Positions 18,370 to 35,478 of a stretch of 42,217 nt of DNA are shown piece after piece; the first letter of the stretch is position 1; each line of letters begins with the position of its first letter. The stretch covers positions 1 to 42,217 of the forward strand of contig JBGQGU010000001.1 of NCBI GenBank assembly GCA_041497655.1, given 5' to 3'. Source of the stretch: Gammaproteobacteria bacterium (GTDB taxonomy: Bacteria > Pseudomonadota > Gammaproteobacteria > Burkholderiales > SG8-41). The position numbers and the translations under genes are program-made. Under the pieces are notes generated by a model. It had not been told where the DNA came from. It searched no databases and worked only from the letters and a program-made list of their open reading frames with translations.

Positions 18370-19086
18370 TCAATATCCCCAAGTCTCGTGCCGGACTGGC
18401 AGCCGGTTCAGCTCGTCACGGTAGAACTGCCATTTAGGCATGAACTGGTCCATCAATATGATGAAGCGCCGACTATGGGTTGATTCCAGCAAGTGCACCA
18501 TCTCGTGCACAGCGATGTATTCGAGGCATTCTGGTGGTTTCTTTGCGAGTTCCGTATTGAGCCTAATATTCCTGGAGCGCACGTTGCAGCTACCCCATAA
18601 CGTTTTCATTCTTTGCACGAAGAACCTCTCGACCCTCACATCCATGAGTGGCTCCCATTTCGCTATCAATCGTGGAACAGCCTCTTTTAGCTTTTCGCGA
18701 TACCACTCTTCAAGGATGGCTTGCTTCTTTTCGTCATTTGTACCAGGTCGAATCTGCAGGACCATCTTGTTGTGCTTCAGCTCCACTCCCGGCGCCGCAT
18801 CCATTCCGCTCACCATGAGCAAGTAGCGTTTCCCCCAGAGATAATGGCTTTCGCGGTCGAGGTACTCGCGCGGGGTTTCGCGTTGCTGCTCACGCAGTTT
18901 TTGCTGTTGCTTCTTGACCCATCCGAGCTTGGAGATAGCAAATACGCGGATCGTGTCGATGTCCATCCGCAAGGGGGCTGAAATTCGGACCCTACCCGCT
19001 GGCGGGTAAACACTCAGATGGACGTTCTTGATGTCCTTTTTCACCACATCCACGGCGATATCGCCCAAGTCGATTCGCGTAACCAT
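18370..19086 (-). CDS. DUF45/YgjP-like (M48/SprT-like) zinc metallopeptidase
   Basis: HEMVHLLE zincin motif near the C-terminus in a protein of about 238 aa. The start ATG overlaps the hsdR stop (TGATG at 19084-19088). Confidence 0.75.
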   Translation of the reverse strand: MVTRIDLGDIAVDVVKKDIKNVHLSVYPPAGRVRISAPLRMDIDTIRVFAISKLGWVKKQQQKLREQQRETPREYLDRESHYLWGKRYLLMVSGMDAAPGVELKHNKMVLQIRPGTNDEKKQAILEEWYREKLKEAVPRLIAKWEPLMDVRVERFFVQRMKTLWGSCNVRSRNIRLNTELAKKPPECLEYIAVHEMVHLLESTHSRRFIILMDQFMPKWQFYRDELNRLPVRHETWGY

Positions 19087-22000
19087 CAGTATTCTCTTTG
19101 TTGCTTGATGATAAGGAAGATGCGCTCGACCTCGGCTATATCTTGCAAGACTCCATACAAGGCGGACTTAATAACTTGCTCGCGTGCCTGCACGCCGCGC
19201 CAACCGTCGGGCCGGACATGCTTGATGGCCGCATCAATCCTTATCGCAAGATCGAGAGCATGGTCTGCCGCAGGTGCGGCTGCAACGTTTACGCCGGTCG
19301 GAGCTGAGCGCCCCTTGAGGTTGTTGTATAGCGCACGCCGACCCGGTGTATTGAGTTGCTTGGGCGTGTCCTCGGCCTGACCTGCCTCCACCTTCTTGAC
19401 AAGTTCGGCGTAGCGCTTCAGAAGTTCCTCATACGCAATGGCTTTGGCTTTGCGGGCGGCGATGATCTCATCCAGGAGTGCCGACATCGTCTCGTAAAAA
19501 GCGGGATCGTTCAGGTGCTCTTTTATAATCTTGCTGCGAACGTTGTTCTCAATAGTTTCCGCCACGGCGTCCTTGTTGCCCTTCAGTCCGCCAAGCTGCT
19601 GGGAAATCGCGTTAGCAATACCAGTCTTCACGATCAGTTCCAGCAGACTCATGTCGTCAAAGGGCGAGATCTTCCTCGGCTCATCGGCCTCGATGTAGGT
19701 ATCGATGAGGTGCCGCATGTCGGCCTCGTAGGCTTTGAGGTCGAGCGTCTCGCCGCTGGCCTTGCGGATGATCTCGCGGATGTTCAGGTAGTGGTCGAGC
19801 TGCTTCTTGATGCGGCTGATGTCGACGGCGCTGTAGCCGGCGGGCTCCAGTTCGTCGGCGATGTTGGCATACGCGCGCGCCAGCGCAACGGCCGCCTTGT
19901 AGAGCGCGGCACGCTGCGGTTCGCGGCCCTTCAAGTCGGCAGCGATCTCGGTGTTGCCGCAGAAGTAATGGATGTGCTCCAGCTCGCCATTAGGCGGCTC
20001 GACTGGCTCGCAGAGCAGGGCAAGCGCTTCAATGGCGTTGTCGAGGCGCTCCTTGCCCTTCTTCAGCCGATCTTGCAGCAGCACCTCGGGCTCTGCCCCG
20101 CCAGCACTGTGGTCCAGCTCGGAGGTGTAGACCGCGATGGCGTTCTCGACCTTCTTGAAGAGGTCCTTGTAGTCCACGATGTAGCCGAAGTCCTTGTCCT
20201 CCCCATCCAGGCGGTTGACGCGGCAGATCGCCTGGAACAGGCCGTGGTCCTGCATGGACTTGTCGATGTAGAGATAGGTGCAGGGGGGTGCGTCGAAGCC
20301 GGTGAGGAGCTTGTCTACCACCACCAGCAGCTTCATGTTGGCCGGCTCCTTTGTGAAGAGCGCCTTGGCCCAGTCCTCGTAGGTCTCCGTCTTGGTCATG
20401 CCCGGCTTGGCGTCAACGTCCTTCAGCAGTTCGGTGTAGGTGTTGTAGATGAACTGCTTGTCAGTCTCGGTGTTGGCGCCGGTTTCCTCCAGCGTCACAT
20501 CCTTCGCCAATGGGTTGTAGGAAGTCACCACTGCGCACTTGCCCTTGAACGGCGTCTTCTGAAAGAGCACGAAGTACTTGCACGCCTCGTAGATGCTGGA
20601 GGCCACCAGGATGGCGTTGCCGCGGCCATTGCTAAGTCGAGGACGCTTCTTGAAGTCGCGGATGATGTCTTGAATCACCTTCCTCATTCGGGATTCGGAG
20701 CTGAGGACCGACTGCAATGTGCCCCACTGTTTCTTAAGCTCATCCTTCTGCCAGTCGTTAAGGTCTTTGGAGACCAGCTCAAACCATTCATCCACGCTTT
20801 CCTGGGAGGTGAGCCGCTGTTCGATGTCTCGCGCTTCGTAGACGAGGTCGAGCACAACTCCGTCCTCAACGCCCTCGCTGAACTTGTAGGTGTGGATGTA
20901 GCCGCCGAAGACCTCCAGGCTCGTTGCCCTGTCCTGCACCAGCAGCGGTGTGCCGGTGAAGCCGATGAACACCGCGTTGGGCATCATCGCCTTCATCACG
21001 CGGTGCAGCTTGCCGCTTTGCGTGCGGTGGCACTCGTCCACGAAGACGAAGACCTCGCCCACAGTCGGGCTGGGCTGGGCTTCCAGCTCCCTGATGAAGG
21101 CGTCGAAATCGTCTACGTCCCTGCGACCGAACTTGTGCACCAGTGAGCAAAGCAGCCGCGGCTTGGCCTGGCCGAGTTGGTTCATGAGGTCGCGGCCGCT
21201 GCTGGTGCGCTTGATCGCTTCGCCCGTCTCGGTGAAGACGCGCTCGATCTGCTTGTCCAGCTCGTCGCGGTCGGTAATGATCGCGACGCGGGCGTTGGGG
21301 TTGTTCTCCAGAATCCACTTCGCGAGCAGCACCATCACGATGCTCTTGCCGCTGCCCTGCGTGTGCCAGATGATGCCGCCCTTCTTCTCGCGCGCGTGCG
21401 CCTGCGCGGCCTTGACGCCGAAATACTGGTGCGCCCGCGGCAGCTTCTTTACTCCGCCGTCGAAGAGCACAAAATCGTGCATCAGCTCGATGAGCCGCCG
21501 CTTCTCGCACAGCTTGAGCAGATACTTGTCCAGCTTGAAGCGGCTGTCATCTGCTTCGTCTTCCTTCCACTTGAGGAAATACTTCTCCGGCGTGCCGATG
21601 GCGCCGTATTGCAGCCCCTCGGAGTCGTTGCCGGCGAATACGATCTGGACGGTCGAGAAGAACCACTCGTTGAACTCCTTCTGCTGGTTGGAGAGCAACT
21701 GGCGGATGCCGTCGCCGATGGAGACGCGGCTGTTCTTCAGTTCCAGCACGCCGATAGCGATGCCGTTCACATGCAGCACCAGATCGGGCCGCCGCTCGTG
21801 GTTGCCCTTGAGAGTCACCTCCTCGGCGATGGCGAAGTCGTTCTTCTCCGGCTCGCGCCAGTTGATGAGGCGCACGGTTTCCGTGACCTTGCCCGCCTCG
21901 ATTTTCACCGGCACGCCGTAGCGCAGCAGGGCGTAGACGGCCTGGTTGTTGCCGTAGAGCGTGCGACTGTGGTTGTCCGCCTCGGTGCGCAGTTTGTGCA

Positions 22001-22187
22001 GAGCCACGCTGATCTGCGCCGGGGCGTAGCCGCTTTTCGTGAGCCACGCGCTAAGTAGCCGCTCCTCGATGTTGCTATTGCCGTCGCGGTCGGTCCAGTC
22101 ACCAAGGTAGCGGTAGCCGAGCTCGTCGCGAAACAAGGTAATGACCCGATTCTGCGTGGCGCGCTCGGGTTGGCCAACGGTGCTCAT
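19086..22187 (-). CDS. hsdR: type I restriction endonuclease subunit R
   Basis: 1033 aa. N-terminal nuclease region (PDLVLHVNGIAIGVLELK, a PD-(D/E)xK-like D...ELK), SF2 helicase motifs HTQGSGKS, DECHRTQ and FTGTP, and a C-terminal HsdR domain. Confidence 0.95.
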   Translation of the reverse strand: MSTVGQPERATQNRVITLFRDELGYRYLGDWTDRDGNSNIEERLLSAWLTKSGYAPAQISVALHKLRTEADNHSRTLYGNNQAVYALLRYGVPVKIEAGKVTETVRLINWREPEKNDFAIAEEVTLKGNHERRPDLVLHVNGIAIGVLELKNSRVSIGDGIRQLLSNQQKEFNEWFFSTVQIVFAGNDSEGLQYGAIGTPEKYFLKWKEDEADDSRFKLDKYLLKLCEKRRLIELMHDFVLFDGGVKKLPRAHQYFGVKAAQAHAREKKGGIIWHTQGSGKSIVMVLLAKWILENNPNARVAIITDRDELDKQIERVFTETGEAIKRTSSGRDLMNQLGQAKPRLLCSLVHKFGRRDVDDFDAFIRELEAQPSPTVGEVFVFVDECHRTQSGKLHRVMKAMMPNAVFIGFTGTPLLVQDRATSLEVFGGYIHTYKFSEGVEDGVVLDLVYEARDIEQRLTSQESVDEWFELVSKDLNDWQKDELKKQWGTLQSVLSSESRMRKVIQDIIRDFKKRPRLSNGRGNAILVASSIYEACKYFVLFQKTPFKGKCAVVTSYNPLAKDVTLEETGANTETDKQFIYNTYTELLKDVDAKPGMTKTETYEDWAKALFTKEPANMKLLVVVDKLLTGFDAPPCTYLYIDKSMQDHGLFQAICRVNRLDGEDKDFGYIVDYKDLFKKVENAIAVYTSELDHSAGGAEPEVLLQDRLKKGKERLDNAIEALALLCEPVEPPNGELEHIHYFCGNTEIAADLKGREPQRAALYKAAVALARAYANIADELEPAGYSAVDISRIKKQLDHYLNIREIIRKASGETLDLKAYEADMRHLIDTYIEADEPRKISPFDDMSLLELIVKTGIANAISQQLGGLKGNKDAVAETIENNVRSKIIKEHLNDPAFYETMSALLDEIIAARKAKAIAYEELLKRYAELVKKVEAGQAEDTPKQLNTPGRRALYNNLKGRSAPTGVNVAAAPAADHALDLAIRIDAAIKHVRPDGWRGVQAREQVIKSALYGVLQDIAEVERIFLIIKQQREY

Positions 22188-23467
22188 ACCAGCCGAATCC
22201 TCCCCGTCAGCAATTCCTGCATTATGCCCTGCTTGAGCTGGCGCGCCTTGGTGAGCTTGGCTTCCAGCGCGGCGATCTCGGCGTCCATGTCGGAAAGGAC
22301 GGCGGCGATAGCGAATTGCTCGGGCAGTGCGGGGATTGGAAATTGCAGCTTGTTCAGCGCGGCAAGATTGACGACCTGCTGCGCGGAACCGGCACTTGGT
22401 GCTAATACCATTCGTCTTCCATCGGGTGAGTTGAGAAGGCAGACCATGTAGTCGGCCGAGACCTTGCTGTTCAGTCGAAGAAGTCCGACGGCGCGTGAAA
22501 TATTCGCCCCAATGAGGTCGTCAGGAATCCTGGCAGATGCCCCCGGATATCCGACCAAAGCAATCACAACATCGTTCTTCACAAGAGCTGTCCTGCTGTA
22601 TTCGGCAGCTTTCTCTCGCGAGACCATCGGCAGATCGGCTTTCACGCGCCCATCAATAATGTCTCCGCCGCGTAGCATCTTGACGCCGTTCTGGACAAAC
22701 GTCCCCGCCGTCACAATGCCGTAAGTCGCGTTCTGCGTTAGGACAACTCTCATACAAACCGTAGACCACTCTCCGCTGAACCCCGGCAGGCGCTTCTTGC
22801 CGGTGAGCAATTCTTGCATGGCGCCTTGCTTGAGCTGACGCTTCTTGGCGAGGAGTTGCTTCAGGGATTCGATGAGGGCATCCGCATCGCTCAATGCCTC
22901 GGCGATTGCTTCTTGTTCGGCTTTGGTAGGCGGAAGGGAAACCTCAAAGACTCTGAGTTGAGTCTTGCCAATTTCGAGGAAAGTGCTGCCACCACACAGA
23001 CTGATGAAGCCCTGCTTCTGCGCAAGTAAAAGATAATAGAGGAACTCGACATCGATGCTCTCGAACGGCACGAAGTTCTTGAAACCCTGGTTGGTGGAAA
23101 CAGGGACTCGGTTGATAGCGCACTCTCCGATCGTGGCTCTTGAAGTCATCACAACCGAGTTGGTAGGAATGATTTCAGCCGAACTGCTTTTTAGCCCTTG
23201 GAGCGAGATTTTTCGGCTGGTATCAGTAAGGTATTTGCCTCCATTCAAACCCGTAATGTCTGTAGGCGTGCACCAAAGTACATCTCCATCCCAGAACTGC
23301 GGTTGTGTAGTGCTTGGGGTACCTCCACTGCGAATGTCCGCAAGCTGATCCAATCGCTTAACCTCCCAATCGTCCGGTATCACCCCCACCTCGGTCTGCT
23401 TGAACCCGTCCGGCACGCGCTGATCCGCCGCTACCAAATAACCATTCTTGGCCTCTCTCACTTCCAT
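22184..23467 (-). CDS. hsdS: type I restriction-modification specificity subunit S
   Basis: Two target-recognition domains are separated and followed by conserved helices: LPPTKAEQEAIAEALSDADALIESLKQLLAKKRQLKQGAMQELLTGKKRL and IPALPEQFAIAAVLSDMDAEIAALEAKLTKARQLKQGIMQELLTGRIRL. Start ATG 23467 overlaps the hsdM end by 10 nt; the stop overlaps the hsdR ATG (ATGA at 22184-22187). Confidence 0.9.
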   Translation of the reverse strand: MEVREAKNGYLVAADQRVPDGFKQTEVGVIPDDWEVKRLDQLADIRSGGTPSTTQPQFWDGDVLWCTPTDITGLNGGKYLTDTSRKISLQGLKSSSAEIIPTNSVVMTSRATIGECAINRVPVSTNQGFKNFVPFESIDVEFLYYLLLAQKQGFISLCGGSTFLEIGKTQLRVFEVSLPPTKAEQEAIAEALSDADALIESLKQLLAKKRQLKQGAMQELLTGKKRLPGFSGEWSTVCMRVVLTQNATYGIVTAGTFVQNGVKMLRGGDIIDGRVKADLPMVSREKAAEYSRTALVKNDVVIALVGYPGASARIPDDLIGANISRAVGLLRLNSKVSADYMVCLLNSPDGRRMVLAPSAGSAQQVVNLAALNKLQFPIPALPEQFAIAAVLSDMDAEIAALEAKLTKARQLKQGIMQELLTGRIRLV

Positions 23468-25860
23468 GAGAACCCCATCTTTTCCAGGTGCCGATTCACC
23501 TTCGCCTCCATCTCGGCCACGCGGCTTTGCATTCGCGGTAACGGGGTTTCGTAGCGTTCGGCTAGCTCTTTCACGCGCTGGGTCAGTTGCTGGCTTACGC
23601 GGTCCATCTCGCCTTGGATAGCGGCATCGAGCGCGGCGAGCCACTTGTCGTCCGCCACCAGCGTTTTGATCTCGGACTCGGTTAGCTTCGGATACCTGGC
23701 GTAGGCCTGGGCGTCGAGCGTGGCCTCAGCCTCCTTGAGGCGCTTCTTAAGGTCGGCTTCTTCGCCGTTGAGTTTCAGCCAGTCGTTCAGCACGGTGGAT
23801 TCGTCCTTCGCGTCCTTGTCGCCTTCGATCTCGTTCAGCCGGGCGGCGACGTTGGCTTTGTTCACTTTGTCGAGTTCAGCAAACACCCCGTCCTCGCCGC
23901 CATGTTCTTCCTCCATCTCGGTGAGGCGGGCGGTGACGCCCTCCAGTTCGGCGGCTAGTTGGTCAATGGCCGCCTGTTCCTTGGCGAAATAGCGGGCGAC
24001 GATGAGGGCCTTGGGGATGAGGTCGCAGGTCCAGCCCTTGTCCTTCTCTTTGCCCTTCTTGTCCTTCTCGATGATGCGGGTGGTCTCTGCCTTCCAGCCG
24101 TCGGCGGCGATCAGGTAGCAGTCGTCCTGCATCGTCTCAGCCCAGTAGTCCATGAGGTGCTGGTAGATGTCGTAGGGGTCGATGAGCGGCTTCCCAGTGT
24201 AGTGAGCGAGCAAATCCTCAGCCAGGGCGGCGATGACCTGCTTGGGGTGGCAGCCAGGCTGTAGCGCCTTGAGTGTTGCGGCGCTGGTTTTCCGCCAGGC
24301 AGTGAAGTGGACGTTCATGCCGGCGATGAAGGCGGCGAACTCGGGGTGCTCGTAGATCGTGGATTTGACGACCGCCTTGTCCACGGCCAGATCAAGGTAC
24401 CCAGGACGCCTGTCTTTGAACAACGTCTTCCGAAGTCTCGGGCAAACTGCCCAATAGCGCTGGAGGGCATCCGCGTCAGCCGCAGGAATCCCTCCTTTCA
24501 GATGCCCCTCGATATCCTGGTTGTCTTCAGGCGTTTGGCTGTCGATGTAGCGCGAAAGGTTGAGGTTGAACTCGTTCTTCTCGATCTCTTCGAAGCTCAC
24601 CATGCGCGCATATTTTGGATCGCTTTCGTCCCGCCTGTTGAATACGTCCACGATCTTGTGGATGTCCTGGGCGCGCAGGCGGTTCTTGGGGCCGTCCTTC
24701 ATGAAGCCGCCGCTGGCATCGATCATGAAGATGCCTTTGCGGGCGTGGGCGTCCTCCTTGTCAATGACGACGATGCAGGCGGGGATGCCGGTGCCGTAGA
24801 AGAGGTTGGCTGGCAAGCCGATGATGCCCTTGATATAGCCCTTGCGAACGAGGTTGCGGCGGATGTCGGCCTCGACATTGCCGCGGAACAGCACGCCGTG
24901 CGGTAGGATGCACGCGCCTTTGCCGGTGCTCTTGAGCGAGCGGACTATGTGCAGCAGGTAAGCGTAGTCGCCCTGCTTGGCTGGCGGTGTGCCGAACGGC
25001 TGGAAGCGCTGGTAGGGGTCATTTAGCGGGTCGATCCCGGTGCTCCAGCGCTTGTCGGAAAACGGCGGATTAGCGACGACGTAATCGAAGGTCTTGAGCG
25101 TGTCGCCGTCCTTGTACTTGGGGTCGGCCAGCGTGTTGCCCTGCACGATGAGCGCGGTGGGGTAGTTGTGCAGAATCATATTCATGCGGGCGAGGCCGCT
25201 GGTGGCGGCGTCCTTTTCCTGCCCGTAGACCGTGAGGGAAGTGCCGGCCTCGTCGCCCACCTTCAGGAGCAGCGAGCCCGAGCCGCAGGTGGGGTCGTAG
25301 ACTGTGGTGGCGGCGCTGGTCTTCGCGTCTCGGATGCCGATGACCTGCGCCATGATGCGGCTGACCTCGGCGGGCGTGTAGAACTGGCCCTTGCTCTTGC
25401 CACTTTGGGTGGCGAAGTGCCGCATCAGGTATTCGTAGGCGTCGCCGAGGATGTCGTCGCCCTCGGCGCGGTTCTTGGAAAAGTCGAGCGCCTTGTTCTC
25501 GAAGATAGCGATCAGGTTGGTGAGCCGGTCCACCATCGCCTTGTCGGTGCCGAGCTTCGAGGCGTCGTTGAAGTCCGGCATGTCGGACAGCTTGTTGGCG
25601 TTGGCCAACGGGGCGATGATCTTCTTGTTGATCTGGTCGCCGATGTCGCTCTTGCCCTTGAGGGCGACCATGTCCTTGAAGCTGGCCCCCTTGGGAATGA
25701 CGATCGGCGCGTAGGGCACACCGGCGTATTTGTCGCTGACATACTTGATGAACAGCAGCACCAGGACATAGTCCTTGTACTGGCTCGCATCCATGCCGCC
25801 GCGCAGTTCGTCGCAGCTGGACCAGAGCGAGCTGTAGAGTTCTGATTTCTTGATTGCCAT
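23458..25860 (-). CDS. hsdM: type I restriction-modification methyltransferase subunit M (long form with about 350-aa coiled-coil C-terminal extension)
   Basis: HsdM_N-like N-terminus (LWSSCDELRGGMDASQYKDYVLVLLFIKYVSDK), SAM motif DPTCGSGSLL and catalytic NPPF (VVANPPFSDKRW). A Lys/Glu-rich extension ends in ERYETPLPRMQSRVAEMEAKVNRHLEKMG. Confidence 0.95.
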   Translation of the reverse strand: MAIKKSELYSSLWSSCDELRGGMDASQYKDYVLVLLFIKYVSDKYAGVPYAPIVIPKGASFKDMVALKGKSDIGDQINKKIIAPLANANKLSDMPDFNDASKLGTDKAMVDRLTNLIAIFENKALDFSKNRAEGDDILGDAYEYLMRHFATQSGKSKGQFYTPAEVSRIMAQVIGIRDAKTSAATTVYDPTCGSGSLLLKVGDEAGTSLTVYGQEKDAATSGLARMNMILHNYPTALIVQGNTLADPKYKDGDTLKTFDYVVANPPFSDKRWSTGIDPLNDPYQRFQPFGTPPAKQGDYAYLLHIVRSLKSTGKGACILPHGVLFRGNVEADIRRNLVRKGYIKGIIGLPANLFYGTGIPACIVVIDKEDAHARKGIFMIDASGGFMKDGPKNRLRAQDIHKIVDVFNRRDESDPKYARMVSFEEIEKNEFNLNLSRYIDSQTPEDNQDIEGHLKGGIPAADADALQRYWAVCPRLRKTLFKDRRPGYLDLAVDKAVVKSTIYEHPEFAAFIAGMNVHFTAWRKTSAATLKALQPGCHPKQVIAALAEDLLAHYTGKPLIDPYDIYQHLMDYWAETMQDDCYLIAADGWKAETTRIIEKDKKGKEKDKGWTCDLIPKALIVARYFAKEQAAIDQLAAELEGVTARLTEMEEEHGGEDGVFAELDKVNKANVAARLNEIEGDKDAKDESTVLNDWLKLNGEEADLKKRLKEAEATLDAQAYARYPKLTESEIKTLVADDKWLAALDAAIQGEMDRVSQQLTQRVKELAERYETPLPRMQSRVAEMEAKVNRHLEKMGFSWK

Positions 25861-25873
25861 TAATTACGGGTTC

Positions 25874-26170
25874 TCAGAGCGCGCATTGAATCCGGTGAAA
25901 AGACCTTCCGCCATCTGCTTGGTAGTCTGGTCTAGGCCCACCAAACGTCTTGTCTGAGACTGTTAGCCGCGAAATCTCATCCATAGCATAGGTTCGCCAG
26001 CCCGGGCCCTCTTTGGACTCGCTCCCACCATGGAGAAACCAAGCATTTAAAACGAGCTTCCCAGTCTTGCTAAAAGCAACCATGTGCGGCTCAACAGTAC
26101 GTTCGCCACCCTTGTACGAAAATGAAATTAGTCGCCGCCCAGCGATTGCGTGACAGATCTCATTCTGCAT
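25874..26170 (-). CDS. 98-aa stand-alone WYL-like domain protein (no HTH)
   Basis: RRLISFSYKGGERTVEPHMVAFSKTGKLVLNAWFLHGGSESKEGPGWRTYAMDEISRLTVSDKTF matches the WYL pattern (l.f.Y...R.veP..l....g.w.l.a......W+.f.ld.I..l......F). RBS GGAGGGGA. There are 13 nt to the hsdM start and 19 nt from the upstream gene stop. Confidence 0.5.
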   Translation of the reverse strand: MQNEICHAIAGRRLISFSYKGGERTVEPHMVAFSKTGKLVLNAWFLHGGSESKEGPGWRTYAMDEISRLTVSDKTFGGPRPDYQADGGRSFHRIQCAL

Positions 26171-26189
26171 ACCTTCGTCCCCTCCACTC

Positions 26190-28151
26190 TTAAATCAGGG
26201 CAGAGACAGCACCGACTATCTCCTCAAGTACAGGAACCCTATGACCTGCTTCATAAATGCTGTGTATTAACCGCGCCGCCGCTTCCGGATTTTTCAATGC
26301 CTTGGATGGTTCGCTATAGCCCAAATCGTCGGCAATCAATGCCCTTACCTCTTGGTAGTACTTCCCACCCACGGCGGCTTTGATTTCCATCTCCACATCA
26401 TCACCAAATACCGCCCATTCCTTGTTTACCTGAGTATTCGGAAAATCTACAACTGTAGCGTTCGCCAGTCTTTGCAATAATTGATTGGTTTGCGCCGTGG
26501 ACTTTTCATCTTTGTTTCCCTTCCCTTTGTGCTTGGAATCACCATCAAAGACAAAGTAAGTAGGAATCTCTAAACCACGGAACACAACAACTGGTCTATC
26601 AATCTTTGTCTTTCCTTCAGCCGGCACAATTACGATTCCGCGACGATCCCAGCCTTTCTTCATGATGTTCTGAAGGGCCCAGAAGATTCCAAACTCAGTT
26701 AACCCCTCCACAACAACAACAGAATCAGCGAAGAATCCTTCGTTAACAGTCGCATTCATTACCGGTATAGCATGAGCCAAGAAGGTATCGCCAGTGAATA
26801 GCTTTGGATCCTTTTGGCTGATAGCTGCCAGTCTTCCCGCTGCCTGATCTCTCGAGAACGCAGTAATCTTGCATTGGAGCGTCGGAACGTCCTTTGTGGG
26901 GATCTTGCGAGCAAGCCGCACTCGTTCAAAACGACCCAGATTGATGAAATACGGAGAGTGCGTCGCATAAAAGACTTGGGTACGAGCCTCCTCCGCCTTT
27001 GCAGACTTTATCGACAATTGGTCCAAGACAGAGGACAAGAATCTGCTTCGAGAAGGGTGTAGATAGAGTTCAGGCTCCTCGATTGCAAGGATGAGATCAG
27101 GCACACGAAACTTCTTGAGTTCCTCGACTTCGGCTTCGCCCTCAGCTTTCTGCTCCTTCTCGGGCGGTGATAAATCAGTCAGCGAAAGTTGTTGAAGCAA
27201 GGCGAGAACCAATGCCCTTTGCAATCCATGGCCAGAGTAGCTAATTGGAGATTTGAAATTGTCCTCGACTAGCGACGCGAGTGCCGTTGGCAATAAGATC
27301 TTGGGCGGAGTGACATCACCAAAGGCTAAATCAAGCTCAGCGCCTGGTGCGTATTGCGATAGTAACTTGGTGACCATCTTGGCAAGCTCTGTTAGTTCAG
27401 TGAGATTCTCTGCGCTGTATACGGCCTTTACTTTCTTTTCAAACTCTTCATTAAGCTCGCGTACGTCCTTTCTCGCATTCACGCTTCGTGCCACAAGGAC
27501 ATCAATCAGTTGAAGAATGACACCCTTTCTCTCGGTTTCCGACGTGGCATCACGAACGGCTGGAACTAATACAAATCTGGTGTAGTTATCAATCTTGCCT
27601 CCCCCAATATTCTTGGGCCCGAAGAATTGCTCCTCTCGTTGTGTTGGGACAAGCAATTGTGGATTCTTTTTCTCGAAGTCATCCATCAAAGCATTGGCTT
27701 CGGCGTCCGATTTTACGGTAGGCCCCAAGTCCGGATACTTCTTACTCTCGATGATCTCATTTAGTGCCTTGCGCTTTGGCAAGGCCGCCATCTTTCTGAG
27801 TTCGCTGAACTCCGCGATTTGTCCAGTAACCCCGAAATATTTTGCGCCGCCAGCATTTATCACCTTGGTTACCGTAAGCGTTTTTCCCGTCAAGTATGAC
27901 TTGAACTCGGCTAGCTCATCATCGCGCAATTCGCCGTAGGTAATCCGAATACTTATCTCCGACGTAGTGTCCTTGCCAAAGTAGTCGAATGCGTTCGCCA
28001 AGAAGCCAACGTCATAGAACGCCCCGATCGCCTTAAGTAGAGATGATTTGCCACTTCCATTTCGCCCCAGAATTGCAACAAGCTCATGACAATCAACGCC
28101 CACGTCCTTTAGTGAACGGAAATTTTTTACTTCAATGCGTTGAATAATCAA
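26190..28151 (-). CDS. ABC-type ATPase fused to a TOPRIM nuclease domain (OLD-family or fused PARIS AriA-AriB-like)
   Basis: N-terminal IEVKNFRSLKD...ILGRNGSGKSSLLKAI (Walker A), signature-like YSGHGLQRAL, Walker B/D-loop LILAIEEPELYLHP and H-loop FYATHSPYF. C-terminal TOPRIM: VVVVEGLTEFGIF (Glu) and YFVFDGDSKHKG (DxD). TTG start at 28151 is preceded by GAGGGAG. Visibly AT-richer than the neighbouring genes. Confidence 0.75.
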   Translation of the reverse strand: MIIQRIEVKNFRSLKDVGVDCHELVAILGRNGSGKSSLLKAIGAFYDVGFLANAFDYFGKDTTSEISIRITYGELRDDELAEFKSYLTGKTLTVTKVINAGGAKYFGVTGQIAEFSELRKMAALPKRKALNEIIESKKYPDLGPTVKSDAEANALMDDFEKKNPQLLVPTQREEQFFGPKNIGGGKIDNYTRFVLVPAVRDATSETERKGVILQLIDVLVARSVNARKDVRELNEEFEKKVKAVYSAENLTELTELAKMVTKLLSQYAPGAELDLAFGDVTPPKILLPTALASLVEDNFKSPISYSGHGLQRALVLALLQQLSLTDLSPPEKEQKAEGEAEVEELKKFRVPDLILAIEEPELYLHPSRSRFLSSVLDQLSIKSAKAEEARTQVFYATHSPYFINLGRFERVRLARKIPTKDVPTLQCKITAFSRDQAAGRLAAISQKDPKLFTGDTFLAHAIPVMNATVNEGFFADSVVVVEGLTEFGIFWALQNIMKKGWDRRGIVIVPAEGKTKIDRPVVVFRGLEIPTYFVFDGDSKHKGKGNKDEKSTAQTNQLLQRLANATVVDFPNTQVNKEWAVFGDDVEMEIKAAVGGKYYQEVRALIADDLGYSEPSKALKNPEAAARLIHSIYEAGHRVPVLEEIVGAVSALI

Positions 28152-28345
28152 GCGGTCACTCCCTCAGCCGCTTTAAACCGGTGTCAGACCACGGTATTGC
28201 CGCGTCCTTCGCGCTGCGTACTGAGCAAGCGGCGTCCCACAGGCGCTTTTCCAGTGTCTCGTTCGCAGCGTCTTTTCCGGTCGGAGCGACCCAGCGCATT
28301 TGCCTCCCCTTCCTCCCCTATTGTGAGCAAATTGTAGCGGACAAT

Positions 28346-28472: not shown

Positions 28473-29642
28473 TCAGTCCGCTTTCCGCTCTTCCTCGGTA
28501 TCGACTTGGTAGGCACGCCCAGGCTCGCCTTCAGAACTGCCGGCTGGGCCTGCGCCAACCCATACCGGACGAATCCGGATGAGCTTGCGCTCGGTGCGGC
28601 CGGGCCCGAAGGCCTGCCGCCGCCAGTGGCCGCGCCGCCAGTGCGCGGCAACGGTGCGGCCCGTGGCCGTTGCGCCTTCAAGCGGCGGCCGCTGGCCAAG
28701 CTCCTCGCCGAAAAGGCGTACGGGCGAATAGCCCATCGAGGATAGCTGCGAGAGCAGTTTTTTCTCCTGCTTTGAACCCTTCGCCGCACCTTCGAGCTTG
28801 GCCAGCATGCCTTTGGGGGCATCATCCGGCCATCGCGTCCTGCCTTGTCCGCCGGACTGGTCGATATAGATGAGCGCGTTGGCGACGATACGCAGGATCT
28901 GCGACGCCACCTCGCGCTGCCCACTGATGAGTTGCACGTTGCGCTCGATGTAATGCCTGTCGCTTTCGTCATCGGCCCGGGCGGTCTCCGGTGCGGTGTC
29001 GAGCTTGGAGAAATCCATCGATTGAGCGATTACGTCCTCAATTGGTAGTTCCTTTTGCCCCAATACCAGCGTCAGGCTCATGCCGCTAGCGCGTTCCTCG
29101 AGCCAGGCATGCCGGTACGGCGCGAAATCCGGCTGCGCGAGGCAGACGTTGACCTCGACCTGGCCCGGCTTGACCTCCTGCACGTACGCGCCCTCGGGAG
29201 AACCGTCCGGAAGCCGCAGCTCCGGCTGCGCACCCCAATGCAGGTAAATGACGGGAAACGGCAGCACGATGTCCCCGGCGAGAATCGCATCAACATCGGT
29301 ATGGAGAAATTCTTCGGCGAGCTCCGGGGTAAGCTCGAAAATCTGCTTGCCGTAGTACACGAAACGCGCATACCACGCGGCCATGGTCATCATGAGGCTG
29401 ACCTGGCGGTCGTAGCGGCGGGCTTCCGTCCTGCTCAATCCCATCTCGTCGAGCGCCTCGTCGTAATGCGCCATCGCCATCGGCCCCACGACCGGCACCA
29501 GGTTCTTGTAATGGAAAAAGACCGCGCCGCCCTCTTCCCTGCTCTTTTGCGCGTAGGCCTTGGTGAACTCCGACGCGAAAGGGCAGAGTTGCCGGAACCG
29601 CTCCGGGAAATACTTCGATTTGTCGTGACTCGCTTCGGCCAT
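28473..29642 (-). CDS. hypothetical protein, 389 aa, Arg-rich C-terminal motif
   Basis: Long ORF with coding-like composition and no family I recognise. The C-terminus reads TGRTVAAHWRRGHWRRQAFGPGRTERKLIRIRPVWVG, followed by an acidic tail. Confidence 0.55.
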   Translation of the reverse strand: MAEASHDKSKYFPERFRQLCPFASEFTKAYAQKSREEGGAVFFHYKNLVPVVGPMAMAHYDEALDEMGLSRTEARRYDRQVSLMMTMAAWYARFVYYGKQIFELTPELAEEFLHTDVDAILAGDIVLPFPVIYLHWGAQPELRLPDGSPEGAYVQEVKPGQVEVNVCLAQPDFAPYRHAWLEERASGMSLTLVLGQKELPIEDVIAQSMDFSKLDTAPETARADDESDRHYIERNVQLISGQREVASQILRIVANALIYIDQSGGQGRTRWPDDAPKGMLAKLEGAAKGSKQEKKLLSQLSSMGYSPVRLFGEELGQRPPLEGATATGRTVAAHWRRGHWRRQAFGPGRTERKLIRIRPVWVGAGPAGSSEGEPGRAYQVDTEEERKAD

Positions 29643-30559: not shown

Positions 30560-30608
30560 TCAGCATCCCATGCTGAGACGTGGGTAGAAACGTGGATAGG
30601 AGGTGAGC

Positions 30609-31820
30609 ATGGGACGTGAATTGCATCGGCTGTCAGCACGCAGGATAGCGAAGAAACAGCCGCGTGGGCAGTATTGCGACGGCGGGGGCCTTTATCTCCA
30701 AGTGAGCAAGTGGGGGACGAGATCCTGGTCCTTCCGCTACGGGGAAAAATACATGGGGCTCGGGCCTGTCCATACCGTGCCCCTCGTGAAAGCCCGAAAG
30801 CGCGCCGCCGAGTGCCGGGATCTGCTGCGTGATGGCATCGACCCCAAGGTCGCGCGCGATGCCAAGCTCAGCCAGGTAAAGCTCGATCAGGCCCACACGA
30901 TCAGCTTCCGCGAATCTGCCGAGAAGTATGTCGCGGCAAAGCGGGCGGGCTGGAAAAACGCAAAGCACGCCGAGCAGTGGAGCAACACCCTTGAGACCTA
31001 CTGCGGGCCCGTATTCGGAGCCCTGCCGGTTTCCGCTGTCGATAGCGCGCTTGTGCTGAAGGTCTTGGAGCCGATCTGGACCAGCAAACCCGAGACCGCG
31101 AGCCGGCTGCGCGCGCGAATCGAGAAAGTGCTTGATTGGGCGGCCGGCAGGAAATACCGTGCGGGCGAAAATCCGGCGCGCTGGCGCGGGCACCTGGAGC
31201 ACGAACTGGCCGCCCTCAACAAAAAACGGCGCGTGAAGCATCACCCCGCCCTGCCCTACGAGGAAATCGGCGCGTTCATGGAGCGGCTGCGCGCCCAGGA
31301 GGGCATCGCTGCACGTGCGTTGGAGTTCACGATCCTCAGCGCCGGGCGCACCGGAGAAGTGATCGGCGCGAAGCCGGGCGAGTTCGATCTGGCGAAAGCC
31401 GTCTGGACCGTCCCGGCCGAGCGCATGAAGGCCGGACACGAGCATCGTGTGCCGCTGTCGCCCCGTGCGGTGGCGATTGCCAAGGCACAGCCCGAGGGCG
31501 AGTACGTGTTCAGCGGCATGAAGGAAAAACAGCCGCTCTCGAACATGGCAATGCTGATGCTCTTGGAACGCATGAAGCGCGACGATCTGACCGTCCACGG
31601 CTTCCGCAGCTCATTCCGGGATTGGGCAGCCGAGCAGACCAACTATCCCCGCGAGGTCTGCGAAATGGCGCTGGCGCACGTCGTGCAGGGCGTCGAGGGC
31701 GACTACCGCCGCGGGGATTTATTCGAGAAGAGACGCCGGATGATGAACGAGTGGGCGAGATATTGCGAAACGCCAAAGCGCAGCGCGACTGTCACATCGA
31801 TCAGAAAGAAGAAAGCCTGA
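30609..31820 (+). CDS. tyrosine recombinase/integrase, P4-type (DUF4102 arm-binding N-domain)
   Basis: N-terminal GQYCDGGGLYLQVSKWGTRSWSFRY (DUF4102 pattern). Catalytic region has RTGEV, HEHRVPLS, HGFRSSFRDWAAE and LAHVV...YRRGD (R..H-x-x-R..Y). AGGAGG lies 5 nt before ATG 30609. Confidence 0.9.
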   Translation: MGRELHRLSARRIAKKQPRGQYCDGGGLYLQVSKWGTRSWSFRYGEKYMGLGPVHTVPLVKARKRAAECRDLLRDGIDPKVARDAKLSQVKLDQAHTISFRESAEKYVAAKRAGWKNAKHAEQWSNTLETYCGPVFGALPVSAVDSALVLKVLEPIWTSKPETASRLRARIEKVLDWAAGRKYRAGENPARWRGHLEHELAALNKKRRVKHHPALPYEEIGAFMERLRAQEGIAARALEFTILSAGRTGEVIGAKPGEFDLAKAVWTVPAERMKAGHEHRVPLSPRAVAIAKAQPEGEYVFSGMKEKQPLSNMAMLMLLERMKRDDLTVHGFRSSFRDWAAEQTNYPREVCEMALAHVVQGVEGDYRRGDLFEKRRRMMNEWARYCETPKRSATVTSIRKKKA

Positions 31821-31881
31821 GTCCGCAGCATCAGCCGCCTTTTTCCGGGCGGCTCTTAGTGTGGATTGAGTGGAGGGCGGG

Positions 31882-32262
31882 ATGAGCCAGGTAAAAAAGA
31901 TTTTGGAAAAGGCCAACAAGGCGCGGGTTGCGAGGGGGCTTGATCCCGTCAAGGGCGCTGGATTTGATTATCCGGCCGCCATTGAGAAACTTAAAAGTTT
32001 CGAGTACACGCCGAAAGAAATCGGGGATTGCATTGGCTGCAGTAAGCAGTACATCGGCAGGATCTGCAAGGGCGCGATCCCGAATCACATCATGGGCGAA
32101 CTGCTTTGTGGATTGATAAAAGAAGAATTCGGGCCGATCAGAGACAGGGATGGAAACCTCACGAACGCCCTGCCGTTGATCGAAGGCCAAGAGATCGGCG
32201 GGCGCGTCAGTTTAAAAAAGCCGGGCGTAAAGACGATTCGAGGAAAGGCCGGCGCTCGGTAA
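31882..32262 (+). CDS. hypothetical protein with probable helix-turn-helix
   Basis: YTPKEIGDCIGCSKQYIGRICKG resembles an HTH. RBS GGAGGGCGGG precedes ATG 31882. Confidence 0.45.
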   Translation: MSQVKKILEKANKARVARGLDPVKGAGFDYPAAIEKLKSFEYTPKEIGDCIGCSKQYIGRICKGAIPNHIMGELLCGLIKEEFGPIRDRDGNLTNALPLIEGQEIGGRVSLKKPGVKTIRGKAGAR

Positions 32263-32350
32263 ACTATAGTTACCGCGAGGTGCGCGCCACTGAATACGCA
32301 CCTATATTGCACTTCATTGGCACGCCTGTGCCGTTATCGTGGAGTGCGAA

Positions 32351-32632
32351 ATGCAAGCCTTGCCATTTCTATACCTCAGCATCATCGACATTCTCGCGGC
32401 GAGCCCGTACAAGTCGCGCTCGGGTCTCTACCGAGCAATTCGTACGGGCAAATTTCCCGCGCCCGACCATATCGAGGGAAAAGCGCGCTGGCGGTCTGAC
32501 CTCGTTTCGCAGCGATTAATCGAGATCGCGGCTCAAGCTGACGCCGAGCGCGAGCAGAACGCGAAGAAAGCCAGAGAACACGGGCAGATGATGCTGCGAG
32601 CCCGCCGGGATCACCAAGGCTACGCCGCATGA
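32351..32632 (+). CDS. AlpA-family transcriptional regulator/excisionase-like protein
   Basis: LSIIDILAASPYKSRSGLYRAIRTGKFPAPDHIEGKARWRSDLV matches the AlpA/phage_AlpA HTH pattern (tvyr.i..G.FP.P...g...v.W....v). Confidence 0.75.
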   Translation: MQALPFLYLSIIDILAASPYKSRSGLYRAIRTGKFPAPDHIEGKARWRSDLVSQRLIEIAAQADAEREQNAKKAREHGQMMLRARRDHQGYAA

Positions 32633-32765
32633 AATCGCTGACTGTCGGTGAGCCGCCGGGCGCTGACAAAAAAAATGGCGCCGCGGGGGAAACCGGGGCG
32701 CCCAAGGAATTCAGGCACAACTCGGATTCTACGCGCCGAGGGAGCTGCCCGCAACGGGGCCCGGC

Positions 32766-33170
32766 ATGAGCGCGTCGCAACCCAACAGCCCGCGGCTACG
32801 CCTTCCCGCCTTCGGGCGTGATTTGCTGGACCTCCGCGAGAAGGGCCTCGTGCCGAGGCCCGGTTGGTGCAACGCGAACGTCCTCATAGTTCTCGACTCC
32901 TGGACTATAGCCGCGGCGCGCTGGCACCTGGTCGTCAAACCAGATGACAATCCTGCGGAGTTGGATTTTCTCGGTTGCGCCGGCCTCGATTGCATCCTGA
33001 TTTACGATTCGCGGATCACGGACCGGCCGCGCCTGCGGGCGGCGGCGCGCTCAGTGCTGCGTCGCAAACCTTCGTCCTTGGCCGCTTTCGATGTGGTGGT
33101 CCCGCATCGCGTGGAACTTATCAAGTCGCACAAGGTGGGCGTCGAACTCGCGGAGTTCGCCGATGGCTAA
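32766..33170 (+). CDS. hypothetical protein coupled to the primase gene
   Basis: 134-aa ORF whose stop (33168-33170) overlaps the start of the next gene (ATG 33163). No recognisable motif. Confidence 0.45.
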   Translation: MSASQPNSPRLRLPAFGRDLLDLREKGLVPRPGWCNANVLIVLDSWTIAAARWHLVVKPDDNPAELDFLGCAGLDCILIYDSRITDRPRLRAAARSVLRRKPSSLAAFDVVVPHRVELIKSHKVGVELAEFADG

Positions 33171-34590
33171 AGGACCCGCAGCGGTTCCGGCGACAGCGCG
33201 CCCCGAGCAGGCTACGAGCTTCTGCGACCTGAAGCAAACCGTGCCACCCGCACGGAAGAACGAGAAACCCGACGGACTCGTGGTGGCCGGGCAGGAAGGG
33301 ACAGCGGTCTATGCACTCAGCGAGGACGCCCTGGCGCGGGCCTTCGCCGACCAGCACGGTGCAGTATTGCGCTTTTCGCATGATCGGGGACGCTGGTTGC
33401 TGTGGGACGACACTCGCTGGCGCGAGGACACAACGGACATTGCCTTCGAATGGTGCCGGCAGTTATGCCGAAACCTTAATATCGAGGGCAAGAGAAACTG
33501 GTCGAAAGCGGCCGTGGCTTCGGCCGTGGAACGCTTCTGTCGGGCAGACCGTGCGTTTGCCGTGCGCGGCGATGAGTGGGATACCGGTCCGTGGTTGCTG
33601 GGCACTCCGGGTGGGACCGTGGACCTGTGCACGGGCGAGCTACGTCCAGCCGACCCTGCTGATCTCATTACCCGCTCGACGCTGGTTGCGCCAGCCGAGG
33701 GTGAGCCGCGGCTGTGGCGTCAGTTCCTCGCGCAAGTGACGCAGGGCGACGAGGAGCTGGAACTCTTCCTGCGGCAGATCGCCGGCTACGCGCTCACCGG
33801 AGACACTCGCGAAGAGTGCCTGTTCTTCATCTATGGCCTAGGTGGCAATGGTAAAGGAACCTTCATCGGCGCCCTGCACGAGATCCTGGGCGACTACGCC
33901 GCTAGCGCCGCAATGGACACGTTTCTTGCATCGCGCTTCGCTCGGCATTCAACCGACGTTGCGATGCTCCGTGGCGCGCGCCTCGTGATCGCCTCCGAGA
34001 CCCAAGAGGGCCGATCTTGGGACGAGCAACGGGTAAAGGCCATGACCGGAGGCGACGTACTCACCGCGCGCTTCATGCACATGGACAACTTCAGCTATCG
34101 ACCGACGTTCAAGTTGTTGCTGTGGGGAAACCATAAGCCCGTACTCAAGACCGTGGACGATGCCTGGCGGCGGCGCTTTCATATCGTGCCATTTACCTAC
34201 AAGCCAGAGAAACGGGACGGCACCCTCAAGGAACGCCTACGGCAAGAATACCCGCAGATTCTGCGCTGGGCGATAGATGGCAGTCTCGACTGGCAGCAGC
34301 ACGGCCTAACCGTGCCAGCTCGCGTCAAGGCCGAAACCTCCAACTACTTCTCGGCACAGGACACATTCACCGCCTGGATCGAGGACCGCTGCGAAAGCAG
34401 CCGACTAGGCGCGGAGACCAATGCCGCCCTGTTCAGTTCGTGGCATAAATTCGCCGAGGACGCGGGCGAAAACGCCGGCTCATCCCGCTCTATGGCCGAC
34501 CGGATCGAGGCGCATGGCTTCCGACGTATCAAAGACGAGTCCGGCATCCGAGGCCGTGGCTTCGCCGGAATTCGACTCAAAGTATTATGA
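33163..34590 (+). CDS. phage/plasmid primase, P4 family C-terminal domain / D5-like SF3 NTPase
   Basis: D5_N-like WLLGTPGGTVDLCTGELRPADPADLITR, Walker A YGLGGNGKGTF, Walker B ARLVIASE and FKLLLWGNHKP...RRRFHIVPF, as in the TIGR01613-type primase/helicase of P4-like elements. Confidence 0.8.
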   Translation: MAKGPAAVPATARPEQATSFCDLKQTVPPARKNEKPDGLVVAGQEGTAVYALSEDALARAFADQHGAVLRFSHDRGRWLLWDDTRWREDTTDIAFEWCRQLCRNLNIEGKRNWSKAAVASAVERFCRADRAFAVRGDEWDTGPWLLGTPGGTVDLCTGELRPADPADLITRSTLVAPAEGEPRLWRQFLAQVTQGDEELELFLRQIAGYALTGDTREECLFFIYGLGGNGKGTFIGALHEILGDYAASAAMDTFLASRFARHSTDVAMLRGARLVIASETQEGRSWDEQRVKAMTGGDVLTARFMHMDNFSYRPTFKLLLWGNHKPVLKTVDDAWRRRFHIVPFTYKPEKRDGTLKERLRQEYPQILRWAIDGSLDWQQHGLTVPARVKAETSNYFSAQDTFTAWIEDRCESSRLGAETNAALFSSWHKFAEDAGENAGSSRSMADRIEAHGFRRIKDESGIRGRGFAGIRLKVL

Positions 34591-34594
34591 CCGC

Positions 34595-34692
34595 TGCGAC
34601 GAATGCGACGAATGCGACGCAGTTGCTATATAGATACATTCCCGCGCGCGCTAATGACACTCCACATAGCAGTGCGTCGCAACCGTCGCAAC
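34595..34692. repeat. iteron-like repeat cluster (candidate replication origin or packaging site)
   Basis: TGCGACGAA, TGCGACGAA, TGCGACGCA in tandem (34595-34621), then an AT-rich spacer (TATATAGATACATT), then CGTCGCAAC x2 in tandem (34675-34692). The second set carries the reverse complement of the TGCGACG core. Confidence 0.6.
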
Positions 34693-34722
34693 TCCTGACA
34701 CCAGACTCACCACGGAGACCTT

Positions 34723-35478
34723 GTGACCAAAACCAAACCCGCTAAGAGAAAACCCGGCCGACCCCCGCTCGAATACGACCAGAAGATCGGGGATGCAATC
34801 TGCGTACACCTCGTCAATGGCAAGTCGTTGAGCGAAATCTGCAGGCGGAAAGGCATGCCGTCGAAAGACACCGTCTACAAGTGGATTCGGCAGCACCCCT
34901 CGTTTGCCGACGTTTCCGCGCGCGCACGCGAGGACCAAGGCGATACCTATGCTGATCGCGTCCTGGAGCTGGAAAAGAGAGTAACCGCGGCGAACGCGCA
35001 GGCGATGAAGGTCAGGATCGACGCCTTGAAATGGGCTGCGGGCGTCCGCAGGCCCCGGCGCTACGGCGCGGCTGCGCACGTAACCGTTGATGCCGACGTG
35101 CGCGTTGAGCGCGGCGAGGTGGACCGCGATCACATGTTGATCGAAACCGGTCGCTCGGTTGGTCTAATCATGGAAATGGCGCGCGAGGCGGTCGAACGCC
35201 AGAGCGTACCGCGGCTTGCCGCGCCCGCTGAGCCCCGCCAGGACGGTGCAGCCGAGGCGCTAGAGGCTGGCGCTGCTGCTGGTGGCCCGGCTGGCGTCGA
35301 GGAAAGCGAGGTCGCGCGACAGCTCGAAGCCGAAGCCGCCGCCAAGCGCGAGGAGGCAAACGCGCGCTCGACGGAACGGCTGTTCGAAAAAGAGGTCGGC
35401 ATGCAGATTCGTTCGCGCAACAGCCTCCCGAGTTCTGCTCACTCGGGCAGAGTGCCGTTCACCGCGAGGCGGCGATGA
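34723..35478 (+). CDS. terminase small subunit-like DNA-binding protein
   Basis: KPGRPPLEYDQKIGDAICVHLVNGKSLSEICRRKGMPSKDTVYKWIRQHPSFADVSARAREDQGDTYADRVLEL...RIDALKWAAGVRRPRRYG matches the GRP.kY...HTH...F...Y.rA+..qAd...deil.i...R..id.rKW...K..PkkYG pattern of proteobacterial phage TerS proteins as I remember it. GTG start after GGAGA. Confidence 0.55.
   Translation: MTKTKPAKRKPGRPPLEYDQKIGDAICVHLVNGKSLSEICRRKGMPSKDTVYKWIRQHPSFADVSARAREDQGDTYADRVLELEKRVTAANAQAMKVRIDALKWAAGVRRPRRYGAAAHVTVDADVRVERGEVDRDHMLIETGRSVGLIMEMAREAVERQSVPRLAAPAEPRQDGAAEALEAGAAAGGPAGVEESEVARQLEAEAAAKREEANARSTERLFEKEVGMQIRSRNSLPSSAHSGRVPFTARRR

Follow-up and report, generated by a model that had tools for sequence, protein, structure and literature searches.

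A mobile pair of genes, for an OLD-family nuclease and a stand-alone WYL protein, upstream of a type I restriction operon

What are a gene for a large ATPase-TOPRIM protein and a gene for a very small WYL-like protein doing directly upstream of a complete type I restriction-modification operon, and do they belong to it? The question is raised by a contig of Gammaproteobacteria bacterium (JBGQGU010000001.1, order Burkholderiales), of which we analysed the first 42,217 nucleotides (nt), hereafter called the window; all coordinates are positions in it unless another contig is named, and L-numbers (L001, L002 and so on) denote the contigs and loci with which it was compared. An earlier note on this DNA had taken the large protein for either a class-1-like OLD nuclease or a fused PARIS protein and had proposed it as a backup for the neighbouring restriction genes hsdM, hsdS and hsdR (hsdMSR), with the small protein as a possible link between the two. 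We find that both genes together are a self-contained, horizontally mobile two-gene unit. With moderate confidence, we read this unit as a defence cassette in which a class-1-type OLD nuclease is accompanied by a WYL protein as accessory nucleic-acid-binding subunit, and which is unrelated to the type I operon beside it. The features in question are, with lengths of proteins in amino acids (aa):

26190 to 28151, minus strand: old, encoding the 653-aa class-1-type OLD nuclease; TTG start, GAGGGAG ribosome-binding site
25874 to 26170, minus strand: gene of the stand-alone 98-aa WYL protein ('WYL-mini'); ATG start, GGAGG ribosome-binding site, 19 nt past old
25872 to 28190, minus strand: extent of the mobile old+WYL cassette as given by DNA homology to other contigs, about 2.3 kb

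The large protein combines the two domains by which OLD proteins are recognised, with ABC ATPase motifs at the N-terminus and, at the C-terminus, a TOPRIM domain featuring a conserved glutamate and a DxD metal site. Pfam assigns AAA_15 to residues 1–403 (3.6e-33) and OLD-like_TOPRIM (PF20469) to residues 473–538 (3.6e-14), and all motifs listed in the earlier note could be located in the translation: GRNGSGKSS (29–37), EEPELYLHP (358–366), ATHSPYF (396–402), VVVEG (E482) and FVFDGD (D536, D538). Across an alignment of 17 homologues, K35 of Walker A, a signature-like SGHGLQR, E358/E359 of the Walker B region (EEPE), H398, E482 and D536/D538 are invariant. With its catalytic motifs intact, the protein is apparently an active class-1-type OLD nuclease, and its gene is under purifying selection (ratio of non-synonymous to synonymous substitution rates, dN/dS, of 0.10). 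OLD proteins are ATP-binding two-metal TOPRIM DNA nucleases, of which class 1 members such as P2 Old and Vc OLD can defend alone (PMC10568477, PMC12392090).

OLD proteins are classified by gene context, as standing alone, paired with GajB, associated with a retron or split in the manner of PARIS, and a class with a WYL partner is not among these. In profile, PDB sequence match and fold match alike, class 1 comes out best for the window protein. PADLOC ranks 'Old' first with 163 bits (2.3e-48), followed by AriA (118), the best GajA (98), a retron-type ATPase-Toprim (67) and fused AriAB (53), while the NCBIfam models for the retron Eco8 effector, MADS3 and PtuA remain far under their cut-offs (62.8 bits against 250 for Eco8). 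The sole strong PDB sequence match is the class 1 OLD of Thermus scotoductus (TsOLD, 6P74; 7.8e-19), and the same structure is the top fold match (E 3.7e-22), ahead of GajA and retron-Eco8 OLD, of an AlphaFold model built from 17 homologues, which reached a predicted local distance difference test score (pLDDT) of 72 and leaves an insert at residues 200–350 poorly defined. Most of the additional length compared to TsOLD, about 125 aa, falls into this insert. In common with P2 Old, TsOLD, Vibrio cholerae Vc OLD and E. coli YbjD, the window protein comes without helicase, reverse transcriptase or split architecture.

Of the earlier note's two candidates, the class-1-like OLD is thus retained, whereas fused PARIS is rejected. 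PARIS, the class 4 OLD consisting of the AriA ATPase and the DUF4435-TOPRIM protein AriB, does resemble the locus in its OLD-type ABC ATPase and TOPRIM, and the window locus adjoins a restriction type that can be inhibited by Ocr. However, DUF4435 has no Pfam match at E≤0.01 in the 653-aa protein, whose TOPRIM belongs to the OLD-like Pfam family; the AriA match is restricted to the ATPase part, the fused AriAB profile (PDLC02981) covers only residues 1–46 at the P-loop end, and PARIS chains are absent from the top 50 fold matches. Gabija (class 2) shares the two-domain nuclease and provides the second-best fold matches with GajA, but has to be discarded as well, since no UvrD-like GajB lies nearby: the neighbours of old are a 47-aa open reading frame (ORF), an AcrVA2-like gene, the WYL gene and hsdM, and the only helicase family is that of HsdR. 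A retron (class 3) is excluded by the lack of reverse-transcriptase domains in the neighbours and of Rfam RNA families in 17–33 kb. As the earlier note had observed, helicase, HNH and reverse-transcriptase genes do not adjoin old, judged by Pfam on the neighbours and by the gene table of L116, a public contig with identical DNA.

Relatives of about 650 aa are found across bacteria and archaea with more than 1,500 matches, the best 120 of which are 47–94% identical to the window protein. Phage KS5 of Burkholderia, which is P2-like, encodes with gp28 a relative sharing 27% identity across 91% of the length. Viral contigs yielded no more than two OLD relatives, both weak, so that carriage by phages is not typical of the cassette.

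The second gene encodes little more than a WYL barrel. Its 98-aa product matches Pfam WYL (PF13280) over residues 3–71 with 27.1 bits against a gathering cut-off of 21.8 and the PADLOC WYL profile with 1.5e-8, while no helix-turn-helix (HTH) family of Pfam is matched, in agreement with the earlier description of an HTH-free WYL-like protein separated by 19 nt from old and by 13 nt from hsdM. An AlphaFold2 model from 47 family members (pLDDT 91.1, predicted template-modelling score 0.84) consists of one short N-terminal helix followed by six strands; this single helix comprises 9 residues, leaving no room for an HTH. The earlier note had named lack of a WYL fold in structure prediction as a ground for refuting its proposal, but the fold is present: comparison with solved structures places the WYL domain of DriD with single-stranded DNA (ssDNA; TMq 0.64–0.67, 27–31% identity) and PafBC on top, followed by Sm/LSm proteins. 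The WYL fold is demonstrable via structure comparison only, since a PDB sequence search with WYL profiles returned only a spurious acetyltransferase. Within the small-WYL family, Y19, R24, the WFL triplet at 44–46, W58 and R59 are conserved and situated on barrel strands, and they may be equivalent to the ssDNA platform of DriD. The WYL domains of DriD, PafBC and CapW bind ssDNA as a signal of damage or infection (PMC9186387, PMC11804915, PMC11662680).

DriD, PafBC, CapW, BrxR and WYL1 have the same Sm-like WYL barrel and a comparable defence-associated setting, but regulators of the DriD/PafBC type additionally carry winged HTH and WCX/dimerisation domains, in contrast to the bare barrel described here. 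Lacking an HTH, the 98-aa protein is unlikely to be a transcription factor, and lacking any DNA-binding or dimerisation domain, it would have to act via protein contacts if it is tied to old. The Cas13d accessory protein WYL1, composed of a ribbon-helix-helix and a WYL domain, is a precedent for a WYL protein modulating a nuclease directly and not via transcription. The WYL gene is under purifying selection as well (dN/dS 0.09–0.19), and as both old and the WYL gene are moreover conserved in other organisms, both are real genes. A scan of 1.84 billion representatives with the family profile matched 3,920 proteins at E≤1e-3, of which 1,370 remained at E≤1e-10, and among the best 150 matches nearly all measure 95–160 aa. 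Bare WYL barrels without a DNA-binding domain are therefore a sizeable unnamed family and not peculiar to the window locus, and such proteins must work through partner proteins instead of transcription. It should be noted that the gene table of L116 does not contain the 98-aa WYL ORF (L116 7672–8000) despite 100% identical DNA; a gene this small is easily overlooked in annotation tables.

That both genes move together is visible from blastn comparison of the window with L001, L002, L005 and L009. DNA identity of 89–93% extends from positions 28169–28190 down to 25872–25876, that is from 20–40 nt upstream of old to the WYL stop codon, and the flanks on both sides are unrelated. Coinciding with these borders, the fraction of guanine and cytosine (GC) is 0.49 in the cassette (window 26001–28000) compared to about 0.60 on both sides. 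Close WYL homologues (70–93% identity) are few, and where the contig is long enough they follow, after 13–14 nt, an OLD gene 91–94% identical to that of the window. In L001, a contig of a Burkholderiales metagenome-assembled genome, the cassette is preceded by genes for a ResIII/TnsA-like protein of 880 aa, for an AlbA_2 protein and for an N6_N4 methylase whose tail is PKD-like, and after it come an unknown gene and, next, one for SocA_Panacea. The tail of this methylase recurs in L005 and L009, which end there. The gene order in these other contexts is thus Res-AlbA_2-Mod-old-WYL, with a type III-like Mod adjoining the cassette and no type I genes, and the window carries the minimal old+WYL version of the slot.

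The 47-aa ORF that ends 4 nt before old gives an indication of how the present arrangement arose. Its residues 6–34 are 52% identical to residues 2–30 of the type I HsdM of a Citricoccus plasmid (E 0.1 in the database search, 3e-8 in pairwise comparison), where hsdS and hsdR come after hsdM, and its motif aligns with residues 8–26 of the resident HsdM. It is probably what is left of an earlier hsdM that lost its remainder in the rearrangement bringing the cassette and today's hsdMSR to this place, and the promoter region of this older hsdM may now drive the whole gene run. A remnant of the type III-like Mod found upstream of the cassette elsewhere was considered for the same ORF and rejected, as no similarity exists.

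To what extent the pairing is general was assessed on 80 genome loci with OLD homologues, fetched by family alignment and 27–94% identical to the window protein, with an iterated small-protein profile. A small WYL gene is directly adjacent in 10 of them: downstream of old in L009, L010, L037, L038, L065 and L075, upstream on the same strand in L051 and L066, and divergent in L031 and L085. These loci span Pseudomonadota, Nitrospirota, Ignavibacteria and Asgard archaea, and in a neighbour-joining tree the WYL-linked OLDs fall on at least seven separate branches with sister OLDs lacking the partner; intergenic distances within the pairs are 13–30 nt. Conservation of the pair outside this locus, which the earlier note had made a test of its proposal, is thereby confirmed. 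In the reverse direction, 19 metagenome loci and nine look-ups of small-WYL family members gave about 22 informative contexts. An OLD gene is next door in 8 of these, including L104 and L110, where the WYL gene is located upstream of OLDs from two very different subfamilies; another ABC-type ATPase is present in 4 (AAA_13 in L100, SMC_N in L098, an ATPase module in L114 and L120); and about 10 show neither, among them contexts with an AlwI endonuclease, a C5 methylase, a histidine kinase, a prophage lysis region and a protein kinase. The WYL partner is hence recurrent, yet dispensable for basic OLD activity.

Some further gene arrangements were observed in the course of this survey. Two unrelated metagenome contigs, L114 (3906–7187) and L120 (4001–7242), share a second conserved module, in which the small WYL gene is accompanied by the genes of a 66-aa protein, of an SMC_N/AAA_15 ATPase with 719 aa and of a 172-aa protein. 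After old, WYL is replaced in L020 (10098–10313), L043 (2114–2329) and L046 (9804–10019) by a protein of 71 aa with a KTSC domain (PF13619, about 1e-27), and in L094 and L095 a WYL gene is followed by a KTSC gene; the slot after old seems to accept interchangeable mini-domains. Often located after the WYL or KTSC gene, with OLD present or not, is a conserved protein of 153–155 aa with GIY...YIG-like motifs and a weak GIY_YIG_2 match (0.0044), as in L037 (10308–10775), L043 (2331–2798), L092 (4819–5280) and L098 (5354–5812) and also in L038, L046, L095, L097 and L106. In L112 (1–3967), L113 (1–3958) and L118 (1–7028), OLD is directly preceded by SbcD/SbcC-like genes, either Metallophos with SMC_N or a 'DNA repair exonuclease' with an AAA ATPase of 1160 aa; this hints at a larger multi-gene system in these lineages.

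Within the window, the cassette forms part of a minus-strand run with very short gaps, taken from the ORF list, in the order 47-aa ORF, old, WYL, hsdM, hsdS, hsdR and a gene for a YgjP-like metallopeptidase. The 47-aa ORF and the restriction genes are positioned as follows:

28156 to 28299, minus strand: 47-aa ORF, probably the remaining 5' part of another hsdM; its end lies 4 nt upstream of old
23458 to 25860, minus strand: hsdM, 800 aa; begins 13 nt past the WYL stop
22184 to 23467, minus strand: hsdS, 427 aa as called on the identical contig L116; 10-nt overlap with the end of hsdM
19086 to 22187, minus strand: hsdR, 1033 aa; HSDR_N, SWI2_SNF2/ResIII and T1R_D3-like (Pfam)

The type I set is complete, with HsdM, HsdS and HsdR present at full length. 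HsdM matches N6_Mtase (2e-99) and HsdM_N in Pfam, TIGR00497 above cut-off and PADLOC MTase_I with 1277 bits, and HsdS matches Methylase_S (1.3e-40) with two target-recognition stretches (Pfam). Co-transcription of old and the WYL gene with hsdMSR is plausible at this locus from the common strand, the 13-nt gap and the fact that no intrinsic terminator is predicted between the WYL gene and hsdM. A scan for sigma-70-like promoters, which is uninformative for a high-GC host, gave none in 25.5–30.7 kb.

Proximity to type I genes is, however, not a property of the OLD family. With the HsdM, HsdS and HsdR of the window as phmmer queries, type I genes were detected within 8 kb of an OLD homologue in only one or two of the 80 loci, namely L082 (Halanaerobium), where a non-WYL 100-aa gene lies between old and hsdM, and a weak match in L016; a conserved type I linkage is thereby rejected. 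Adding Mod, Res, C5-methylase and AlwI queries raised the number of loci with any restriction-like gene near OLD to 11. Genes of the same Mod family immediately precede old in L009, L010 and L033, and in L072 and L028 Res/Mod genes follow it. Defence islands ordinarily show this level of association, and the genes concerned are type III-like and not type I; the position beside hsdMSR is therefore specific to the window locus. Because a PARIS-like type I link is unsupported by conservation, annotation of the locus as PARIS or as restriction-coupled should be avoided. The proposed backup function tied to hsdMSR could therefore not be upheld, the cassette occurring elsewhere without type I genes, and neither could the proposed role of the WYL protein as a link between old and hsdMSR, as it associates with OLD and other ABC ATPases and not with restriction-modification genes. 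In two OLD sub-clades, of which one has WYL and the other does not (L001 1111–9987 and L033 1441–9980), we additionally observed type III-like genes directly upstream of OLD, namely those of the ResIII/TnsA-like protein of 880 aa and of the N6_N4 methylase with PKD-like C-terminus, together with an AlbA_2 or Bro-N gene as insertion.

We propose a model in which the ABC ATPase of OLD drives or gates its two-metal TOPRIM DNA nuclease and in which the WYL protein provides a nucleic-acid sensor. The latter would bind a nucleic-acid ligand, with ssDNA as best guess in analogy to the WYL domains of DriD, PafBC and CapW, and would act directly on OLD, licensing or targeting the nuclease once ssDNA accumulates during phage replication or DNA damage, presumably in anti-phage defence. 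The cassette would have inserted or recombined immediately upstream of an unrelated complete type I operon inside an integrase-bearing island, at a site which would retain the first ~35 codons of the older hsdM, and would, albeit probably co-transcribed with hsdMSR, function independently of it. Several observations weigh against this model. About 88% of the OLD homologues have no WYL gene, and close relatives manage without it (L043/L046 compared to L037/L038), while about half of the small-WYL genes adjoin no ATPase. The ssDNA idea derives from fold similarity (TMq about 0.65) and the conserved Y19, R24, W58 and R59. In two loci (L031, L085) the WYL gene is divergent, a layout more typical of a regulator, and in both known contexts the cassette abuts a DNA methyltransferase gene, leaving room for a restriction-modification link.

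The sign of a WYL effect on OLD could also be reversed, with the small protein as an inhibitor or antitoxin-like brake that keeps a potentially self-toxic OLD inactive until a ligand or phage factor releases it. A ligand-released brake is as compatible with our data as licensing or targeting, and the tight two-gene unit with purifying selection on both genes, a weak match of the WYL protein to the PADLOC profile of AbiEii (1.6e-4), a toxin-antitoxin-type system, and the filling of the post-OLD slot with other tiny proteins such as KTSC in relatives would fit it; P2 Old is moreover toxic in recBC cells (PMC10568477). We nevertheless consider a brake unlikely, as most OLD homologues, including close ones, exist without such a partner, which speaks against a general need for an antidote, and the variable gene order, with WYL before or after old, is atypical of a fixed toxin-antitoxin layout.

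The idea of the earlier note, in its more general form, treats OLD and WYL as guards of restriction, a backup effector firing when an anti-restriction protein blocks the neighbouring restriction-modification system. PARIS responds to Ocr in this manner, and PrrC responds to Stp in the EcoprrI locus. At the window locus the shared strand, the 19- and 13-nt gaps and the missing terminator prediction before hsdM would suit such a function, as would the cassettes directly following a type III-like Mod and the weak recurrent adjacency of Mod/Res to more distant OLDs (L033, L072, L028). PrrC/EcoprrI and the BREX-embedded OLD-ABC effectors are likewise ABC-ATPase-linked nucleases co-directional with restriction-modification genes, and a 2026 survey proposes OLD-ABC/TOPRIM modules within BREX and related loci as backup effectors (PMC12839542), so that the backup idea for OLD modules in restriction-like loci is not new. 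In contrast to these systems, embedding is not conserved for the window cassette or the OLD family, and the effector is a DNA-type TOPRIM and not an anticodon nuclease. The cassette is furthermore unchanged between type I and type III-like contexts and hence not tuned to one partner complex, and its differing GC fraction marks a recent juxtaposition. Together with the Old-type rather than AriAB-type profile lacking DUF4435, the low counts of restriction genes near OLD and the tracking of WYL with ABC ATPases given above, this renders a guard function improbable.

Absence of any coupling, with the small WYL protein as an independent island passenger beside old, for example a free-standing nucleic-acid binder or anti-defence gene, would agree with the roughly 10 of 22 small-WYL contexts without nearby ATPase and with the size and promiscuity of the family, but is very improbable in view of OLD adjacency recurring in at least seven independent OLD lineages and in the two very different OLD subfamilies of L104 and L110, of cassette borders that enclose exactly the two genes, and of the 13–30 nt distances.

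Returning to the accessory-subunit model, what appears, from sequence comparison, to be new here is a class-1-type OLD whose accessory WYL gene is conserved, mobile and stand-alone; in the literature we found no paper on a pair of OLD and stand-alone WYL protein. Class 1 OLD is defined as a single-gene system (PMC10568477, PMC12392090), in contrast to which a small WYL neighbour co-moves with the window old and is present in about 12% of the relatives, which suggests that part of the 'single-gene' class 1 OLD is in fact two-component. The means by which class 1 OLD nucleases detect infection and are kept from damaging their own cell are listed as an open question (PMC10568477), and a detachable WYL partner, whose nearest structural relatives are ssDNA sensors, is a testable candidate for this sensing or regulatory step. 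As a wider and more tentative possibility, the small WYL protein might define a fifth OLD context class, as a free subunit sensing ssDNA or another nucleic acid, which would attach to OLD-type ABC ATPases and turn their nuclease activity on or off. Such a protein would then be part of a larger swappable set of mini-adaptors (WYL, KTSC) and small GIY-YIG-like nucleases accompanying OLD and other ABC-ATPase defence genes, and at the window locus the module might also guard the adjacent restriction system.

The remaining features belong to the surroundings of cassette and restriction operon:

30603 to 31820, plus strand: tyrosine integrase of the surrounding island; Arm-DNA-bind_3, Phage_int_M and Phage_integrase (Pfam)
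28473 to 29642, minus strand: 389-aa protein between integrase and old; AcrVA2-like flag from precomputed Pfam on L116
18370 to 19086, minus strand: YgjP-like metallopeptidase, final gene of the co-directional run; PF01863 (2.8e-60)

The 389-aa protein has no matches in our local copies of Pfam, PADLOC and NCBIfam; its flag stems from the identical gene on L116, for which PF26125 AcrVA2-like, an anti-CRISPR-related family, is precomputed. Neither convincing flanking direct repeats nor a tRNA gene were found as attachment sites of the island. In the plus-strand stretch 30603–35478, the integrase is followed by a D5_N/DUF5906 primase-helicase and an Sf6-type small-terminase-like gene, and this combination suggests that a satellite-like or integrative element carries the defence genes. 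At the other end, the gene of the YgjP-like metallopeptidase overlaps the end of hsdR by one base, and a 233-aa protein encoded downstream of it (region 17386–19086, minus strand) shows a sub-threshold match to TNT, an NAD-glycohydrolase toxin.

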